DNA of 64,000 bases from an uncultured virus (IMG/VR IMGVR_UViG_3300046782_000157) (IMGVR_UViG_3300046782_000157); one strand, 5' to 3'; positions 4,112 to 60,969 are shown, counted from the first letter of the stretch. Notes: generated from the sequence alone by a model not told the origin. Program-made: numbers and translations.

Positions 4112-6310
4112 ATGCCACCGAATCTGACCACCGGCCCTACCACTCCAGTCCTCGATAACTTCAATCGAGCGAATGGCGCTCTTGGCTCTGCATGGGCAGG
4201 CCCAGCCGGGCAGCTGTCCGACGATGTACCCACAATAAACAACAACCAGGTATACCAGCAGGCAGATGGCAAGGCTGGTTCGGCCTACCTACAGGGCACT
4301 GTTTACGACTTCAATGCTGGCCCGGTCGAGTGTTTCATCGACATCCCGGTGTCTGGCTATCTTATCACTCAGATCATCGGTTACACATACGCGGTCGGCT
4401 ATTACTATCGTCTTGTCAACGATTCGAGCAACGGGTGGCTGCGGTTGGTGATCTGCCATGCTGGCACTGACAATGTTGTCCAGACGCTCAGCGGCGTATC
4501 AGTCACAGGCGGCGGCAAAATCTGGATGTGGGTCGAGCCGACGCCCAGTGGCCCAGGGCTCGACATCTATTGCATGTACAAGCAGTCGGGTGGAGCGTGG
4601 AATATGTGCTTCGCTAAGTACACCGACACAAGCCTGGTTAGGACGAGCGGCTACATCGGCTTGCGCCTTCAGGGCACATCGACTGTTACATCGTCAGCTG
4701 ACAACTTTGGCGGTGGAGCCCTCTCGACATCGGCCACAGTCGTGTCTCCGGCAGCCAGCGTTTCAATGGGATCGGTCGCACCTGCATTTCGAGTAGACGA
4801 CTCAGTGATAGCACCGCCTGCGACCGTTAGTGCGCAATCTATCGCACCCATGGTCTCGATTCCGAAAACAGTCGTAGCTCCGTATGCGAGCTTCAGCGCG
4901 CAGTCGGTAGCTCCTGCCATCTCGGGAACTGCGGTAGTTATCAGTCCGCCCGCGCTCTTTACCAGTGTAGCTGTTGCTCCAATCTCGGTGTTGTCTCCGA
5001 TCGTACTCCCTGGTGCAGCAACTTGGACAGCTACAGCTGTCTCGCCGGGCCTCGGGCGACAGATCATTAGCACGTCTGGAGTATTCACAGCGAGCATGAG
5101 TGCGCCTGGTACGGGCAACCTTCTGGTGCCGCCTGCTGCGTTCTGGATGGCATCTGCTGTCGCACCCGCTCCCACCATTTATATCCTGGCTGCTGTCGGG
5201 ACATTCACGAGCAGCTCTGTCACGCCGGTAGTTGTGCAGGGCTTGTTCTCATTCCCGAACGCCTGCTTGTTGACAGTCGGCAGTGTCGCTCCGACCTTGA
5301 GCATCCTACAGACGGTGACAGTGCCTGCTTCGATCTGGACGGCGAGCCCGATTGCTCCTCTTCTGGTGAAGACGTTGTTCCCGAATGTGGTGCTGTCGAC
5401 GTTCTCGACTATCGCGCCTGCGCTTTCTATTGTTACGCCTATCACGGCAGCTCTGGTGACGTTCCGATCGGGAGCACCATCGTTCATCTCGGGCACGGGA
5501 CAGTCGCTCGCGATTCCGCCTGCTACGTTCTCAGCCGCTGCTGTCGCCCCATCGACGTCAGTACTGGTAGTTGTGCCCTATGGATCGTTCACGGCGTCGA
5601 TCGCTACGCCTGTGCTCGTCAATGTCTTGGCTGCCTCGTCTGCTATTATGACGCAGACAAGCGTGGCGCCTGTGCTGGCGAGAAGTCCGCTTGTGTTGAT
5701 GCCGGCGCCAGTTACGACAATGATTGCTGGAGCGCCGAGCATTCTAACTGGTGTGGGAACGACAGCTCCAATCTTTACAGCGAGTGCGTCGCCACCATCC
5801 TTGTCCATTTCGCTCGCGCCCACAGCTCCGACTTTCACAGCAGTTATTCCGGCTGTACAACTCGGACATACTATCGTTCCGTCGCCGATTCGGACGACGT
5901 TCACGAGTGCTGCTTCAATCCAGATGATTGTCCAGTTGCCGGTCGGAGTCTGGTCTGCGGCCATGACGACTCCCAGCGTCGCTCTCCAGGTGCCCGCTCC
6001 GGCCGGCAAGCTTACGATGTCGAGTATGACCATTAGTATGGATGTTGAGAAGACAGTGTCTATGGACGTAGCGCGCTGGACGGCGCAGCTGCCAGCCCCT
6101 GCTTTGAGCATTATTCTCAAAAGTCCCGTTCCGATCTGGGTCGGTTCGCCGCAGAATCCCCAGATCGGACGGGGCTCGATCGCAGTGCCGGCCTACGTCA
6201 ACTTCTCTGCGGTTGAGCCAGATGTGCAGCAAGAGAGCACAACGGCGGTCTACACGTATGTGCCGGGTGAAGTTGTCGAGTCGAATGCGTGGCCGATGTG
6301 GCAACACTAG
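4112..6310 (+). CDS. fibre protein: N-terminal beta-sandwich/lectin-like domain plus Pro/Ala/Thr/Val repeats
   Basis: DNFNRANG...ADNFGGG domain followed by many ~20-aa V.xPPATFTASxVAP repeats. Confidence 0.7.
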   Translation: MPPNLTTGPTTPVLDNFNRANGALGSAWAGPAGQLSDDVPTINNNQVYQQADGKAGSAYLQGTVYDFNAGPVECFIDIPVSGYLITQIIGYTYAVGYYYRLVNDSSNGWLRLVICHAGTDNVVQTLSGVSVTGGGKIWMWVEPTPSGPGLDIYCMYKQSGGAWNMCFAKYTDTSLVRTSGYIGLRLQGTSTVTSSADNFGGGALSTSATVVSPAASVSMGSVAPAFRVDDSVIAPPATVSAQSIAPMVSIPKTVVAPYASFSAQSVAPAISGTAVVISPPALFTSVAVAPISVLSPIVLPGAATWTATAVSPGLGRQIISTSGVFTASMSAPGTGNLLVPPAAFWMASAVAPAPTIYILAAVGTFTSSSVTPVVVQGLFSFPNACLLTVGSVAPTLSILQTVTVPASIWTASPIAPLLVKTLFPNVVLSTFSTIAPALSIVTPITAALVTFRSGAPSFISGTGQSLAIPPATFSAAAVAPSTSVLVVVPYGSFTASIATPVLVNVLAASSAIMTQTSVAPVLARSPLVLMPAPVTTMIAGAPSILTGVGTTAPIFTASASPPSLSISLAPTAPTFTAVIPAVQLGHTIVPSPIRTTFTSAASIQMIVQLPVGVWSAAMTTPSVALQVPAPAGKLTMSSMTISMDVEKTVSMDVARWTAQLPAPALSIILKSPVPIWVGSPQNPQIGRGSIAVPAYVNFSAVEPDVQQESTTAVYTYVPGEVVESNAWPMWQH

Positions 6311-25705: not shown

Positions 25706-25792
25706 CTAGGGCCGCTTTATGAATCCTAGAAACATTACAACAGCGATGATCCCAACCTCAATGAGCAGAATCCATGACTGCGTATTGGTCAT
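25706..25792 (-). CDS. small membrane peptide
   Basis: MTNTQSWILLIEVGIIAVVMFLGFIKRP; ATGA overlap with thyX. Confidence 0.5.
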   Translation of the reverse strand: MTNTQSWILLIEVGIIAVVMFLGFIKRP

Positions 25793-26697
25793 ACGATTCT
25801 CAACTCCTTCTTTGGCTTGAAGCGCCGGTTCTCCTCGATGGCATAGGGGAAGTCGCATTGACCCTCGACTTTCTCCCAGCCCTGGAACTCGCACATATGA
25901 GTCTTCTCGCAGGTGATCTTGATGTACGGCTCCAGCCAGGGGTGAGCCTCAACTAGCAGCTTGCCCATCTCGCGGAAGCAGTACACGATCTCATGCTGGA
26001 ACATCGTACACGCCCGGTAGGCGTACGTGGCGATGAACTCCCGGAGCGGGTACTCGCACTGGATGTAGTTGGTGGTTCCTTCCGGCAGGATGTAGCGAGC
26101 GTCCTGGTAGCTTACGTCGTGGAGGCAGGCCACCCGGTACGCCTCGTGCGCTGCCGCGAGCGCCTTCAGGTAGGCGTCACGGACAGGGATCGGAGCACGC
26201 CAGATCGACTCTGGCATTCGAGCTTGGGGCTGTGTTCCATACCAGGTAGCTCGCTGGCTCTGCTGGTGGAACCCGGCCTTGCGCGTTCGGACAAGCTGGT
26301 GAGTACAGCACCGACTTACGCCGGTGATCTCGAAGACGACAACCTGGGTCTCCAGGGAGGATTGTAGTCCTCCCCGGAGCATTTCGTCCCAGTCCGCCAT
26401 CTCACCAGGATCGTTGATGTCGATTCCCGTAGTCGCCCGGAGTGCACGGCTCTGAACGGCACGGAAGTCTTCCTCATTGATTCCTTGCACGAGACGCACC
26501 TGGATGTCGTCTACACCAATCGAGATCTTCGCGTTGTTGAACGGACTATTGTGAGTCCCTTCCTGGTTCTTGGAATGGCGGTTGAAGGCCACATCCCTCC
26601 CCAGAGGAGTCTCGTGATAGTCCATGGACGCTCGGCTCGGGTGGTAGTAGGCGTACTCCTGGTCAACTGTCTCGATGTAGATGAGATGCGGATCCAT
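25789..26697 (-). CDS. thyX: FAD-dependent thymidylate synthase-like protein
   Basis: SR..THQLVRTR-x7-S-QR and QDARYILP motifs; RHR altered to RTR. Confidence 0.85.
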   Translation of the reverse strand: MDPHLIYIETVDQEYAYYHPSRASMDYHETPLGRDVAFNRHSKNQEGTHNSPFNNAKISIGVDDIQVRLVQGINEEDFRAVQSRALRATTGIDINDPGEMADWDEMLRGGLQSSLETQVVVFEITGVSRCCTHQLVRTRKAGFHQQSQRATWYGTQPQARMPESIWRAPIPVRDAYLKALAAAHEAYRVACLHDVSYQDARYILPEGTTNYIQCEYPLREFIATYAYRACTMFQHEIVYCFREMGKLLVEAHPWLEPYIKITCEKTHMCEFQGWEKVEGQCDFPYAIEENRRFKPKKELRIV

Positions 26698-26699
26698 CG

Positions 26700-27098
26700 C
26701 TAGCCCTTCTGGCTGACGATGTTCTTACCTGCCTTCGACTTTATGAAAGCAGCTTGCGCTGAAGCGTCGAGTTTCTTGGGGACAACCCTTTTGATCACTG
26801 GTGCCGGCGCGGCCACGAGTCGAACGGCTGCCTTACGTGCCTTGCTATCTGCCGCTGCCGTCTGCTCGACGCCACCGAACCCGGTGTATGTCTCGCCCTT
26901 CTTGTACATCTGGCCCTTGGTTCGAGGCGCTGTGTACCGCCAAGAGATCCTACAGATCCCCGGCATGCTGAAGTCGTAGCCGTCGGAGATCTCCTCTTCT
27001 GCGATCTGGGCGAGCGCGTCCATGACGTTCTTGGACAGTTTCGGTTTGACGCCGGTCAGCTCCTCGACGGCTTGTGCCAACTCATTTTTGCTCAGCAC
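26700..27098 (-). CDS. HU/IHF-family DNA-binding protein
   Basis: LSKNELAQAVEE.TG...V.DAL...I...I..G...PG. Confidence 0.8.
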   Translation of the reverse strand: MLSKNELAQAVEELTGVKPKLSKNVMDALAQIAEEEISDGYDFSMPGICRISWRYTAPRTKGQMYKKGETYTGFGGVEQTAAADSKARKAAVRLVAAPAPVIKRVVPKKLDASAQAAFIKSKAGKNIVSQKG

Positions 27099-51566: not shown

Positions 51567-51638
51567 TCTGTGCGACCCTCCTTCGTTTTGGTGGTTTGAA
51601 CACCAGCCCTGTCGGATTATATCTGACAGAGCTGCTAC

Positions 51639-51962
51639 TCAATACCTGCTTTTCGAGACGAGCTTGCCGTTGTCGAAGCAGAACTGATAGCTGCCGTTCT
51701 GGCTGAGAATGCCGTAGTAGATACAACGGCTGTTCAATGTGCCGCCGTAGCCACCGACAGTTGTGTCGTCGCTGCTCTGAGGACTGCCGAACGAGCTTCT
51801 CACGTAGCTTTCGCTGACGCCAATTGGCATGATAGCGAAAGCATTGGGATCGACCTGAGCACTTGACTTATCGCTCGCGTCGGTGATCCCGTGAAGTGCG
51901 AATGCTCCACCGCCTACAAAGAGGCTGAGTAGCAGCAGAATGGTGATGAATGCGCCTTTCAT
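51639..51962 (-). CDS. exported protein with BamE/BLIP-like domain
   Basis: Signal/TM helix; F..M.IG.S...V...FGSP; F.NGKLVSK. Confidence 0.6.
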   Translation of the reverse strand: MKGAFITILLLLSLFVGGGAFALHGITDASDKSSAQVDPNAFAIMPIGVSESYVRSSFGSPQSSDDTTVGGYGGTLNSRCIYYGILSQNGSYQFCFDNGKLVSKSRY

Positions 51963-52048
51963 TTTACGACCTTCCTTCGTTTTGTTTTTATTTGGTTCTG
52001 TGTCTGCTGACACAAGCCGCTACACGTTGTCCTGAGTAGCAGCTTCTA

Positions 52049-52607: not shown

Positions 52608-52946
52608 TTACGCCGCGATATGCTTCGCACAGCGGTGAACTCGCTTGCCGTCTTTGAATAGCGACATGATCGCGAGTGCTCCGCACTTCTCGCCTTTGAC
52701 CGCTTGTCCGTTATACGTTGAGCCCGCAGGCCCGAGTTTTGTACGCTTCGTGCGCTTCTTCTTGAAGAACACTGTCGTCGTTTTGCCTACGAATGCGTCG
52801 CACGCTTCGGCGACTGCTAGCTCGCGGTCGATTGCGGGCGTAGCGGTTGCTCCGCTTATTCTTGAATCCCGGCTTTGTCCCGGGCTTCTTGCGGACTTCG
52901 TCGATACCGGCCCTCTGCTTTTTGCCGGCTTTTTACGTTTTGCCAC
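52608..52946 (-). CDS. basic early protein
   Basis: RBS GAAGGAGGGTCA then GTG. Confidence 0.6.
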   Translation of the reverse strand: MAKRKKPAKSRGPVSTKSARSPGQSRDSRISGATATPAIDRELAVAEACDAFVGKTTTVFFKKKRTKRTKLGPAGSTYNGQAVKGEKCGALAIMSLFKDGKRVHRCAKHIAA

Positions 52947-53174
52947 TGACCCTCCTTCGGGGCTTATTGAATTGCTCCTCGATTCGGATTATTCGGTTGA
53001 ATCGAGGACGTGCGGAAGCGGGACGTACGCTTACACGGGGGTTTTTGACGGCGTGCTTATGCCTTGCCGCTTTTCCCGCTCGGGTGGTGCGTCCCTCCTC
53101 CTTCGGTCGCTTAGGCGCGACCGGGGAGGGGTCGAGAGAATCGGATTCTCTCGACCTCCCCCGCTCGATCCCTG

Positions 53175-53549
53175 CTAGGCGCGAGCCTTACGATACGCGC
53201 CGGACGCGAGCCGTCCCGGTCGCTTCGCGGCTACCGCGTAGCCGCCGAGGCGGTCTACGTTCGCCCGGGTCGGGCGGAACCCGAAGACGATCGGGAGGGC
53301 GTACGCTCGGAGATCCGTCGGCGACTCGGCGAGTACCGCCCGAACGTCGGCCGCGCGTACGTCTTCGATCCGCTCGAACGAGCCGACCCGACTCGGGATT
53401 AGACCCGCGTCGCGGCGAGCCGCGTAAGAGATCTCGCGAGTCGACCACTTCTTCTCGCCGCCGTAAACGGCCGCGTCGATCTCGGCGTCGGTCTTTCCGG
53501 CCGCCGCGAGCTTCGCGATTTTGTTCTCGTTACTTTTACTTACGGACAT
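53175..53549 (-). CDS. first gene of leftward operon, CA/TG-depleted
   Basis: RBS GAAGGAGG; no Gln, His or Cys. Confidence 0.65.
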   Translation of the reverse strand: MSVSKSNENKIAKLAAAGKTDAEIDAAVYGGEKKWSTREISYAARRDAGLIPSRVGSFERIEDVRAADVRAVLAESPTDLRAYALPIVFGFRPTRANVDRLGGYAVAAKRPGRLASGAYRKARA

Positions 53550-54189
53550 TTCGTTCCTCCTTCGGAACTCCGGAATTGCCGTTCCGGTATCGGGAACCGC
53601 GGTACGCGGCTCGCGAGACGCGATACCGGAAATTGAAATCGGGAATCCGGTCGCGCCTCGCGAGCCGTCCGAGGTCGAGAGAATCGAATCGAATCTCTCG
53701 ACCCCGGCGGCCCGCCGAAGGAAGGAAGGTCTACGGCTCGCGCGCCTACGCTCTAGAGCCCGGGCGCCGCCCCTATCTACGGGGGACGGCGACCCTACGC
53801 GCGTCCGATCGAGTCCCCCGGGCGGCTATAGGGCGGGCGGGGGAGGGGAAGCCGTAGACCGCCCCTCCGAAGCCCGCGCGTAGCGATCGCGCGGCTCCTC
53901 CGACTAGTACCGCTCGCCTCTCTCCTCGGCTCGACCGAGGGATAACGTCGGCGCCCGTCTCCGGCTCCCTAAGCCTATTAGGGGGTCGGACGGGAATCCG
54001 CGTAACCCTAAACCGAGATCCCCGCCACGTAGCCTCCCTAGGCTACGGGAGGGTGGAGGGTTGGATACTAGGGGGTCTAGAAAATCCCTGCTAATAGGGA
54101 CTATTCAGTGATCGGACGGGACGGGCTAGACCCGCATCAATTAGCCCGAAAAATGTAGAAAAGGGACTCCGGCCACGTACCGGCAAACC

Positions 54190-54420
54190 TGAGGTGAAAC
54201 ACAAAATTTGCTCAATTGCAATTGCTAAAAACAGTGTTAGAAACAAATTGATGTAAAAATCATGAAAACCACCCCTTTTCCAGCTAAAAATCACAAAAAT
54301 CATGAAAAATCACCCATCAATATGAAAAACATACAGAAAAATCCAAAATAAAAACCAATTCTGCAGAAAACCCCTGGAAATCAACACCGTTTTCCAAATA
54401 GAAAACGCACCAATTCACTT
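54190..54420. other. AT-rich A-tract region at strand divergence; candidate terminus/pac or origin
   Basis: Many A4-A6 runs; AAAATCATGAAAA twice. Confidence 0.45.
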
Positions 54421-56699: not shown

Positions 56700-56724
56700 C
56701 ATCTAACCAATGAAAGGAGAGCAG

Positions 56725-57384
56725 ATGCGAAAGATCATTGTGGCGCTGGCAGTGGCCGGTGCTACGTTCGGGATCGCGACCGCAGTCAGCGCGAGCATCC
56801 CAAGCCCCAACGGCGTGTTTCATGGTTGTTATGCTCTGCACAACCAGACGACCGACAAGGGCGTTCTGCGCTTGGTCAACTTCGATCAAGGCGAGGGTTG
56901 CCGCTTCTATGAGGCACCAGTCGCGTGGAACAAGGCAGGCCCGACTGGCCCCAAGGGGGCAACAGGCCCGCCTGGCCCAAGAGGCCCAACCGGCAAGCCA
57001 GGCCCAACTGGCCCGAAAGGCCCCAAAGGAACAACTGGGCCGAAGGGTGCGACAGGCCCGCCAGGCCCGAAGGGCGTCACTGGTGCTCCGGGGCCAAAGG
57101 GCGCCACTGGTGCTCCTGGCCCCAAGGGTGCTACTGGGCCCAAAGGCCCGACAGGGATGAGAGGCCCAACCGGGCCCAAAGGCCCAACCGGCCCCAGAGG
57201 GCCAACGGGCACTGGTCAGCGTGGAGCGACTGGGCCAACAGGCCCAGGTGGGAAAGACGATGACGACAACTTCACCATCCTGCCGGTCTGCGAGAACACG
57301 TCGTCTGGTGAACTGCACGTCAGTCCGCCCCACAGCTGTACAGGCCAGGACGAGATCATCATCCATCTCGTGAAGGCACCATAA
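56725..57384 (+). CDS. secreted collagen-like protein
   Basis: Signal peptide; long Gly-X-Y run (GPKGAT). Confidence 0.85.
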
Positions 57385-59550: not shown

Positions 59551-60969
59551 GTGCTTCGCTACATGTATCCCAAGCCGAGCGTCTACAGGTCGCAGCCTGC
59601 TGCCTGGATCCGCGACCGATGCGGTGCTCATGTCTGGAGCAAGCAGGAGGAGATCTGCGACTCGGTGGTGGATAACAAGTACACGGCTGTGAAGGCATGC
59701 CACGGCCCTGGAAAGAGCTACATCGCCGGCAAGATCGCGGCCTGGTGGCTCGATCCTTCGGTTCACTCTCTCGGATCGGCTTTTGTTGTCACCACCGCCC
59801 CTAGTTGGCCGCAGGTGCAGACGATTCTCTGGCGCGAGATTCGACGAACGCACAGACAGGCCAACCTGTTCGGCCGCATCACGCTGGAATGTATGTGGCA
59901 CATGGGCGAGGGCAGATCTGGTGAAGAGATCGTGGCTATGGGCCGCAAACCACAAGATTATGACGAGCAGGCGTTCCAAGGAATCCATGCGCAGTTCGTT
60001 CTGGTCATCATGGACGAGGCGTGCGGAATCCCTAAAGCTCTCTGGGACGCCGTGAAGTCGATCGTGACCAACGACCAGTGTCGTGTCCTCGCGATCGGCA
60101 ACCCGGACGACCCCGGCTCGGAGTTCGCAATGAACTGCAAGCCGGGGACGGATTGGAACGTCGTGCGTATCTCGGCGTTCGACACACCTGCCTTCACCGG
60201 CGAGGCTTGTCCGACAGAGGTCATGTCCCAGCTAACCAGTCCAGCGTGGGTGGACGAGCGCCGTCGCGACTGGGGTGAAGGCAGCAATCTCTGGATCTCC
60301 AAGGTGGAGGGAGAGTTTCCAGACGTCAGCGATGACTACCTGATCACGCCTAGCATGCTGACACGTGCGCACGCTCTCGATTTGCCTGGGTTCGCTCATG
60401 GCCGATACGGGATGGACGTAGCTCGTATGGGCGACGACATGACCGCCATCTACCGCAATCGAGGCGGGCAGGTGCGACACATAGATAGCTGGGCGAAGCA
60501 GGACACGATGCAGAGCGCGGATCGGGCATACGAGTATCTTGCCAGGCACTTTCCCAAGATGGTACCAATGAACGTGGACGGGATCGGTCTGGGCGCCGGA
60601 GTCTACGACCGGCTGCGGCAGCGTAGATGTGAGGTGGGCAACTTCGAGGGATCGGGCCGAGCCCTGAATCCGGCTAAGTTCAACAACCGCCGTTCGGAGA
60701 TGTGGTGGACGTTCCGCAACTTGATGGAGGAGGGTGGCATCGACCTGGATCCCTTGGACACGCAGTTGTCCGAGGAGCTACAGACCATTAAGTGGTTCAT
60801 CGACCTATCGGGTCGCATCTGTATCGAGACCAAGGAAGATGCCAAGAAACGAGGCGTCGCATCGCCGAACAGAGCTGACGCAGCGGCGATGAGCACAGTC
60901 GAGGCGGGCACGATCCTCAGGATGAACTCTGAGTCCATCTCTGGGTCGCTCTTGACAAAGGCAATGTAG
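59551..60969 (+). CDS. terL: terminase large subunit
   Basis: HGPGKS Walker A, FQGIH, IMDEA Walker B, GNP, DVAR.G.D, SPNRADA; true start may be upstream. Confidence 0.95.
   Translation: MLRYMYPKPSVYRSQPAAWIRDRCGAHVWSKQEEICDSVVDNKYTAVKACHGPGKSYIAGKIAAWWLDPSVHSLGSAFVVTTAPSWPQVQTILWREIRRTHRQANLFGRITLECMWHMGEGRSGEEIVAMGRKPQDYDEQAFQGIHAQFVLVIMDEACGIPKALWDAVKSIVTNDQCRVLAIGNPDDPGSEFAMNCKPGTDWNVVRISAFDTPAFTGEACPTEVMSQLTSPAWVDERRRDWGEGSNLWISKVEGEFPDVSDDYLITPSMLTRAHALDLPGFAHGRYGMDVARMGDDMTAIYRNRGGQVRHIDSWAKQDTMQSADRAYEYLARHFPKMVPMNVDGIGLGAGVYDRLRQRRCEVGNFEGSGRALNPAKFNNRRSEMWWTFRNLMEEGGIDLDPLDTQLSEELQTIKWFIDLSGRICIETKEDAKKRGVASPNRADAAAMSTVEAGTILRMNSESISGSLLTKAM

Follow-up and report, generated by a model that had tools for sequence, protein, structure and literature searches.

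Phages are well known to avoid motifs of four to eight bases. To our knowledge, a ban on a two-base step has not been recognized in phage DNA, and no description of such a ban on CA/TG was found in the literature searched. The locus considered here, part of a 64,000-nt stretch of DNA from an uncultured virus (IMG/VR IMGVR_UViG_3300046782_000157; the whole of this stretch is referred to below as the window), raises the question of why a phage should strip CA and TG from one short segment of its genome, what that segment encodes, and what keeps it in this state. The ban proves to be real, maintained by selection, exerted at the level of the DNA duplex, and confined to a single early-type expression unit, whose boundaries it fits. 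It is strong enough to have removed histidine, glutamine and cysteine from a protein, and has persisted over hundreds of substitutions. The zone is echoed in cultured phages of the wider Pbunavirus-related clade, and an unrelated phage group is depleted genome-wide.

A duplex-level ban on CA and TG in one expression unit

PHROG and Pfam scans identify the window as belonging to a myovirus-like soil phage of ~65 kb, sequence of which was detected in 24 soil and rhizosphere runs. Late genes, including TerL (at 59551), portal, major head protein, sheath and tape measure, lie on the plus strand. They run from 54787 as far as the window extends and, because the window spans about one permuted genome length, resume from its first position and reach about 24000. 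The minus strand carries a replication/early-type operon extending from 53549 down to about 24100, with genes for a DnaE-like polymerase, a primase-helicase, an SNF2 helicase, a PD-(D/E)XK nuclease, a ThyX-type thymidylate synthase, an HU-like protein, a short-chain dehydrogenase, and others. DnaE of the nearest cultured phages is merely about 42% identical to that of the window. In the nearest public record, G001 (129,757 bp), two ~65-kb genomes that are roughly 73-87% identical are joined head to tail; the window is a mosaic of both G001 genomes, spanning about one genome length. The zone and its genomic context comprise the following features:

53088-54026, strand not applicable: CA/TG-poor zone, with 7 CA/TG in 939 bp and a GC content of about 0.67
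54160-54400, plus strand: A-rich repeat block (GC 0.39) with AAAAATCA-type repeats, CA-rich; lies between the divergent operons and bounds the zone on the right
52608-52946, minus strand: next gene of the leftward operon, encoding a basic protein of 112 aa
31989-32777, minus strand: short-chain dehydrogenase (context gene)
25789-26697, minus strand: ThyX-type thymidylate synthase homologue, 28% identical to gp059 of Pbunavirus F8 (context gene)

The original prediction held that positions 53175-54025 contain only five CA or TG dinucleotides, where some 90-100 would be expected, and both figures stand: the count is two CA and three TG in 851 bp, far under the minimum of 66 obtained in 10,000 mononucleotide shuffles of the same segment (mean 93.6, sd 7.6). 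Base composition alone predicts 47.6 CA and 45.9 TG, giving observed/expected ratios (o/e) of 0.04 and 0.07, respectively. In a sliding-window scan, o/e fell below 0.5 in five of 319 windows (400 bp), all of them inside 53001-54200. The zone as delimited here (53088-54026) is slightly larger than first described, with an o/e of 0.07 vs. 1.13 for the rest of the window. Its longest CA/TG-free runs measure 392 bp (53634-54026) and 273 bp (53173-53446), vs. 62 bp for the longest such run elsewhere in the window. Over 52651-53100, plus-strand CA is weakly depleted (two overlapping 300-bp windows contain 6 and 3, where 11 and 9 are expected, respectively) and TG is near normal.

CA and TG are both missing from the zone, equally in the two orientations, and the depletion spans coding and non-coding DNA (an open reading frame and its leader alike), as had been claimed. 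The zone does lie at the head of the leftward, early-type operon, of which it forms the first unit, and is directly adjoined by the A-rich control block at the divergence point. Compensation for the missing dinucleotides is seen across 53175-54025 in CG (o/e 1.61), TA (1.59) and GA/TC (1.57/1.53), and the GC content of the zone (0.61-0.72) is higher than that of its flanks. The pentamer CTACG/CGTAG occurs eight times in the zone, against 3.6 ± 1.8 under a dinucleotide model, a suggestive excess.

This stretch of ~0.94 kb is a complete small expression unit, consisting of a structured leader of ~0.5 kb, an open reading frame of 124 codons (ORF W) preceded by a strong ribosome-binding site, and a terminal hairpin:

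53175-53549, minus strand: ORF W, 124 aa, ATG start, all-helical model, orphan family
53556-53562, minus strand: Shine-Dalgarno-like AAGGAGG, 6 nt ahead of the W ATG, recognized by eye
53124-53162, minus strand: hairpin I2, just 3' of the W stop codon, with 19-nt arms (89% complementary) and no U-tract
53669-53707, minus strand: hairpin I3, a leader hairpin whose stem repeats the I2 stem sequence
53607-53667, minus strand: hairpin I6, in the leader, with 17-nt arms (94% complementary)
53704-53967, minus strand: best-conserved part of the zone, within the non-coding leader

The W protein was said to lack glutamine, histidine and cysteine, and does; it contains one tryptophan and one methionine. 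When W is re-encoded with the codon usage of the phage, 34.3 ± 4.5 CA/TG result (minimum 17, n = 5000), vs. 3 observed, and thus both the codon choice and the amino acid content of W have been bent by the constraint. Hairpin I2 is likely a terminator or insulator of the W unit; having no T-run, it was not called by a scan for U-tract terminators and does not qualify as an intrinsic terminator. In the other genome copy, hairpins occupy the places of both I2 and I3 with a different sequence, again common to the two places. Conservation is concentrated in the leader, where positions 53704-53967 are 93% identical between the two G001 copies, vs. 71% for the stretch that holds the ORF. The leader contains no credible ORF and has no Rfam match (the only hits were chance matches to microRNA-like hairpins, all under the gathering scores of their families), and a sigma-70 scan found no promoter inside the zone. 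Promoter candidates read by hand within the zone were dropped, as they are not conserved between both copies.

Comparison of the two copies shows the constraint at work. The second copy of the zone, which spans the end and the start of record G001, differs from the window by 195 substitutions and 197 gap columns, yet contains only 4 CA/TG in 998 bp; applying the same substitutions without regard to context yields 55 ± 5.7 (minimum 36 in 2000 trials). In two other soil runs, all ten single-base variants and both indels inside the zone keep it free of CA/TG. TG-specific mutability was not detected among 463 SNPs between the window and G001 (80 C<->T changes with a 3' G, vs. 81.4 expected). Purifying selection on the DNA duplex keeps the unit free of TG/CA; its action at the duplex level follows from the equal absence of both orientations and from the like behavior of coding and non-coding parts.

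Relatives with and without the zone

The same signal recurs in relatives, with zones in five IMG/VR and five metagenome loci. An IMG/VR survey by way of TerL covered 23 loci, ten of which include at least 4.5 kb upstream of this gene. Five of the ten (L021, L023, L025, L028 and L037; TerL 57-62% identical) bear a zone, with CA/TG-free runs of 261-556 bp located 3.3-4.5 kb upstream of TerL, and five (L018, L031, L032, L034 and L035) have none. A metagenome survey examined the 45 longer loci out of 80: L071, L075, L084, L085 and L087, in which the flank is long enough (TerL 58-60%), all contain a 500-bp window with o/e ≤ 0.08, the minimum in L089 is 0.43, and L093 has no zone. Some metagenome loci duplicate IMG/VR lineages (e.g. 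the L071 cassette is the same as that of L023).

In all ten zone-bearing loci (TerL 56-62% identical to that of the window), the zone contains a homologue not of W but of another gene, ORF X (155-183 aa), encoded on the same strand as TerL. The X-type zone in the five IMG/VR loci is 647-745 bp long, beginning 90-126 nt before the start codon and ending 51-54 nt past the stop codon (153 nt in one locus), just beyond a strong hairpin; a CCCCCC-loop-GGGGG 5' hairpin lies at the left edge in four of the five, and the start codon is the sole TG tolerated in several units. The 0.6-1.2 kb directly upstream of the zone is ordinary to raised in CA/TG content (o/e 0.92-1.35 in L021, L023, L028 and L037). 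Arrays of TTGAGTTG-type repeats are found upstream of the zone in L023, L028 and L037, followed by an A-rich block in L028 and L037. The gene in these zones is unrelated to W, and the rule thus attaches to whichever expression unit comes first next to the control region, irrespective of the gene it holds and of the direction of that gene.

The ban can also be gained or lost between close relatives. A public record with a TerL 81% identical to that of the window (G004) carries a W orthologue at the same place (54% identical by search, 44% in alignment), the composition of which is ordinary (28 CA/TG in 420 bp; three histidines, three glutamines and one cysteine), with a weak dip alone (o/e 0.45) upstream. 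We read this normal composition as secondary relaxation, since three further members of the W family (P0002, P0003 and P0006, available as protein sequences alone) are also devoid of histidine, glutamine and cysteine. No zone is present in G009 (TerL 51%). Of the 82 ORFs of the window, compared across ten genomes, none occurs in every genome with a zone while missing from every genome without one. The short-chain dehydrogenase, which is present in both G001 genomes, Serratia phage Hera and coliphage PQ604604 and absent from G004, F8, G009 and G005-G008, fits five W-type or cultured cases and is missing from four X-type genomes.

Among cultured phages, Hera (Myosmarvirus) has a depleted zone at 12.6-14.3 kb (o/e 0.13-0.32), and that of PQ604604, at 1.8-3.5 kb, recurs at 69.4-71.1 kb. 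Both resemble the soil phage in the dinucleotide affected, in compensation by CG and TA, in the small unassigned genes involved, and in the location of the zone next to the early/late switch, within a few kb of TerL. In contrast to the near-total depletion (o/e 0.07) of one gene and its long leader in the soil phage, however, theirs is partial (o/e 0.13-0.4) and extends over 1.7-2 kb and several genes. The PQ604604 zone lies inside a terminal repeat of ~3.7 kb, whereas that of the soil phage is known from assembled contigs alone. Neither W nor X has a match in Hera, the cassette proteins of which are unrelated to those of the soil phage.

Depletion takes a different form in a group of siphovirus-like phages of ~35-36 kb (TerL 32-33% identical, GC 0.44), which are poor in CA/TG across the entire genome. 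Whole-genome o/e is 0.29-0.34 in three complete records (G014-G016), with CG, TA and GA/TC compensation as in the zone, and with CA and TG equally low on the coding strand. ThyX matches are absent from the five records of this group that were searched; one G015 gene resembles a DNA-base glucosyltransferase (phrog_842, E 6e-24).

Proposed escape from TG-context modification, and rival explanations

Why should one unit be kept free of TG/CA? The best-supported guess, and the second of the two readings in the original prediction, is that the unit would thereby escape a DNA base modification placed in TG context, a reading to which we assign a probability of about 0.4. The phage would mark its own DNA at TG, in the manner of Pbunavirus phages F8 and 14-1 with their bulky thymidine derivative, and a unit without TG on either strand would be the single part of the injected genome to stay chemically ordinary. 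Unaided host RNA polymerase could then transcribe this unmarked unit as soon as infection begins, and host nucleases that sense modification, or modification-dependent DNA binders of the phage itself, would be blind to it. The small, helical, basic W protein may serve as a bootstrap factor for later steps, and related phages may have put another gene in this position to the same end.

According to a 2025 preprint by Yee et al. (PMC12191111), F8 and 14-1 carry a heavier, hypermodified thymidine in place of about a quarter of their T, located "in a TG motif", and F8 virion DNA resists the five tested enzymes with TG-containing sites. This is the sole TG/CA-specific activity on phage DNA found in the literature searched. 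Wifcevirus phages are described in the BASEL paper as distant relatives of Pbunavirus that resist most restriction-modification (RM) systems without known protection. The Pbunavirus clade shares TerL, DnaE and ThyX homologues with the soil phage, and ancestry shared with F8 is evident but distant (TerL 21%, DnaE 30%, ThyX 27-28% at E 1e-21, helicase 24%). Moreover, 6-bp palindromes that contain CA/TG are less avoided in the window than those that do not (mean z -0.68 vs. -2.37, p 0.016). The same comparison gives p 0.057 in F8, p 0.024 in Hera and p 0.56 in lambda (the sole negative control), and the trend is the same in the cassette-less relatives L031, L033 and L034. Given the reported modification of F8, the F8 homologues, the zones of Hera and PQ604604, and the weak palindrome bias, TG-directed modification in the soil phage is plausible.

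Some observations sit less comfortably with self-modification. A strong deficit of CATG and TGCA in the window (z -6.5) does not fit simple protection of TG sites. F8, the one TG-modified phage examined for a zone, has none: its lowest 300-bp o/e is 0.47 and its longest stretch free of CA/TG measures 88 bp, so TG modification alone does not demand a TG-free unit. No modification enzyme was identified in the window, where a PHROG match to "polynucleotide kinase" resembles a HAD-type phosphatase when its sequence is read by eye and is not similar to F8 gp057. Only four of 50 early-operon proteins match F8, the distribution of no gene follows the zone across the ten genomes, and the palindrome signal is weak, being shared by cassette-less relatives and set against a single negative control. 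Self-modification also explains the whole-genome depletion of the ~35-kb phages less easily than does an agent from outside.

Such an outside agent, acting on the TG/CA of incoming DNA with a harm that scales with the number of sites, is the main rival, although we consider it unlikely. Candidates would be a host defense enzyme that marks or damages a base in TG/CA context, or a small-molecule DNA binder that prefers this step, and phages could answer either by fully clearing one indispensable first gene or by thinning TG/CA genome-wide. The genome-wide o/e of 0.29-0.34 in G014-G016, with its zone-like compensation and its equality of CA and TG on the coding strand, speaks for this possibility, as do the lack of ThyX matches in the five records searched from that group, the TG-modified but zone-free F8, and the occurrence of zones in phages of unrelated hosts (soil, Serratia, E. 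coli). We know of no defense or compound with TG/CA specificity, however, and none was found in the literature searched; the host would need to leave its own TG-rich DNA untouched; and the rest of the phage genome, with its normal or raised CA/TG content (o/e 1.13), would be left exposed and therefore need separate protection, which points back to modification. Because of its glucosyltransferase-like gene, G015 may itself modify its DNA, and the whole-genome thinning, while it fits a harm that scales with sites, would suit either an external agent or the cost of a phage's own mark. A constraint on the transcript is improbable. Here, mRNA lacking CA and UG would resist a host or phage endoribonuclease, much as ACA-less mRNAs survive MazF, or would offer no off-frame NUG start. 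The X-type units of the five IMG/VR relatives lend themselves to this idea, in that the zone begins at about the expected transcript start and ends just past the terminator hairpin, with the 5' hairpin at its left edge in four of five and the start codon as the only TG tolerated in several. An RNase would nevertheless need to cut two unrelated dinucleotides, and the fact that CA and UG are reverse complements indicates a duplex-level rule. The zone is enriched in UA, the most common of the RNase-labile steps, instead of avoiding it; in the whole-genome-depleted phages, co-oriented genes are as poor in CA as in TG on their sense strand; and start-codon logic leaves the loss of CA unexplained.

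Restriction-site avoidance on the first-entering DNA until an anti-defense gene has been made, as in T5, appears more doubtful still. In T5, the first-step-transfer (pre-early) DNA reportedly has no EcoRI sites, which are present in the later-entering DNA; a single 6-bp site is avoided on a terminal segment amounting to 8% of the genome, and entry in two steps is proven. The likeness lies in early genes carried on DNA without a nuclease motif, buying time before protection, and in a motif that is absent locally yet present elsewhere (o/e 0.07 in the zone vs. 1.13 in the rest of the window). The distance of ~5.5 kb from the zone to TerL downstream also matches the layout of PQ604604 (TerL at 9.8 kb, zone at 1.8-3.5 kb), and the break in each of the W-carrying public records, G001 and G004, falls inside the unit or at its edge. 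For the suggestion in the original prediction that this may be the first-injected DNA, the zone in the PQ604604 terminal repeat is the only support, by analogy. Unlike T5, the soil phage bans a 2-bp step, to the point of reshaping a protein. There is no general paucity of restriction sites: the zone contains 30 six-bp palindromes, three times the density of the rest of the window (31.9 vs. 10.8 per kb), and wholesale avoidance of restriction or BREX-type motifs, one of two readings offered in the original prediction, is in this general form unsupported. Its palindromes include GATC (nine times), TCGCGA, CCCGGG, CGATCG and TCTAGA, in the abundance that the dinucleotide content predicts, and CA/TG occurs in just 16 of 58 scorable 6-bp palindromes. 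The ban targets CA/TG itself, not restriction sites generally. Contigs from four soil runs bridge the zone with no doubling of depth (assembled contigs neither place nor exclude a genome end), and the break in G004 is an ordinary circular overlap of ~100 bp. Finally, that the composition is a relic devoid of present function, imported from a CA/TG-poor donor or left by context-specific mutational decay, is very improbable. CA/TG-poor phage genomes do exist and the GC content of the zone exceeds that of its flanks, but survival of the depletion through the 195 substitutions between copies largely refutes this explanation. The zone (o/e 0.03-0.07) is also more deeply depleted than any depleted genome seen (0.29-0.34), its edges match unit boundaries in the five relatives measured, the orthologous gene of G004 has a normal composition, and the 463 SNPs show no TG-context excess. 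A foreign-island reading was rejected on the retention of 4 CA/TG, vs. 55 for context-blind substitution.

The preferred reading, escape from a TG-context mark, resembles vertebrate CpG islands in concept, both being short regulatory or expression islands free of the base modification of the genome. A CpG island retains its target dinucleotide and shuts the enzyme out, whereas the soil-phage island would remove the target; the two have no evolutionary relation. More broadly, it is possible, if on balance somewhat doubtful, that a widespread and undescribed pressure on phage DNA reads the bare TG/CA step, in the form of a dinucleotide-specific modification, self-made or host-imposed, that blocks expression. 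Phages would then have two answers, either stripping one immediate-early bootstrap unit or thinning TG/CA genome-wide, as in the ~35-kb group, and W and X would represent a new class of first-acting factors that make a marked genome readable or safe. The zone provides a purely sequence-based marker of a probable immediate-early gene and, if the modification reading holds, would mark phages with TG-context hypermodified DNA, including relatives of the Pbunavirus phages used in therapy. Cultured phages, namely Hera and the Wifcevirus isolates grown on E. coli K-12 derivatives, make bench testing feasible, with F8 as a natural zone-free contrast.

The cassette proteins W and X

Zone DNA has no similarity to any of 50,697 phage records, and the W protein has no match in phage records, IMG/VR, Pfam or PHROGs. 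Four relatives of W were found among 5.8 billion proteins, and a profile search of 1.84 billion representatives gave 11 matches at E ≤ 0.001, five of which we take as real and the others as alanine-rich noise. Both structural models, of W (pLDDT 72) and of X (pLDDT 73), are entirely helical apart from a basic, disordered tail, and neither has a Foldseek match with E ≤ 0.001. W matches no helix-turn-helix (HTH) family by sequence or fold (best Foldseek E 0.58, to a small terminase), and a protein-atlas search with W gave HTH leads only, with scores (0.79-0.81) below the useful range. W and X have no detectable homology (hhalign probability 0.2), and their N-terminal parts differ. We read the cassette proteins as probable small nucleic-acid-binding early proteins. 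A C-terminal Y-x-G-R-G-x-R/K motif is found in X, in the W relatives of G004 and P0006, and in the product of a small gene in the second G001 genome; the basic Y-x-G-R-G tail has been lost from the W protein of the window, and the small G001 gene is of normal composition.

Composition inside and outside the CA/TG-poor zone

Depletion of CA/TG dinucleotides spans the entire genome in a group of siphovirus-like phages of ~35–36 kb, whose large terminase (TerL) is 32–33% identical to that of the window and whose GC content is 0.44. The group comprises the following members:

L127, L129, L130, L133: metagenome loci
G014, G015, G016: complete IMG/VR records (loci L172–L177)

The observed/expected ratio for CA/TG is 0.29–0.34 in the three complete records, while the four metagenome loci show ratios of ~1.7 for CG and ~1.4 for TA. 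The thymidylate synthase ThyX was found in none of the five searched records of this group, and the ORFs of G015 yielded no polymerase match; in the same phage, a gene resembling glucosyl-HMC glucosyltransferases adjoins a ParB-like gene.

Within the window, depletion in the gene that follows the zone (52651–53100) is one-sided: plus-strand CA numbers 6 against an expectation of 11 in one 300-bp window and 3 against 9 in a second that overlaps it, all small counts, and TG lies near expectation; this gene lies on the minus strand, and the low step on its sense strand is TG. Across the whole window, CATG and TGCA, both 4-bp palindromes containing CA/TG, are strongly under-represented (mean z −6.5), and 6-bp palindromes with CA/TG are hardly avoided.

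Hairpins, repeat arrays and a gene akin to X

ORF W, the 124-aa ORF of the CA/TG-poor zone, is bracketed by a pair of hairpins with counterparts at the end and start of G001, the nearest public record; relatives carry repeat arrays upstream of their CA/TG-free unit, and G001 encodes a small gene akin to X, the unrelated ORF inside the relatives' CA/TG-poor zone:

53124–53162 and 53669–53707: hairpin pair bracketing ORF W (window)
5450–6050 (L023), 5400–5990 (L028), 4300–4830 (L037): repeat arrays of TTGAGTTG type
119668–120000 of G001 (L011 19668–20000), minus: small gene of normal composition, second G001 genome

The stem sequence is common to both hairpins inside one genome and differs between the two genomes; the hairpins seem to evolve in concert. 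The arrays occupy ~0.6 kb immediately 5′ of the CA/TG-free unit in all three relatives, followed in L028 and L037 by an A-rich block with CAA at ~10-bp spacing, and could represent iterons or a cluster of promoters. The small G001 gene shares its C-terminal part with cassette protein X, including the motif S-Y-T-G-R-G-K-R, after which comes an AT-hook-like G-R-P stretch.

Mosaic structure and other window genes

G001 consists of two ~65-kb genomes joined head-to-tail and roughly 73–87% identical to each other. Sequence of both kinds makes up the window, a mosaic in which 1–38938 resembles the second half of the record and 34154–64000 the first. This pattern looks like strain mixing during assembly or true recombination.

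At 51587–52006, a 418-bp stretch comprising most of a 124-aa ORF (51639–52013) is swapped for 39 other bases in two soil runs. The late operon encodes a collagen-repeat protein (56710–57384; Pfam Collagen, E = 2.7e-15), whose best local match in the relative G004 is 100% identical, the genomes being otherwise ~60–80% alike at the protein level. A gene for an HU-type DNA-binding protein (26700–27098) adjoins the ThyX gene, which is reminiscent of SPO1 TF1, a phage protein with a preference for hydroxymethyluracil DNA.
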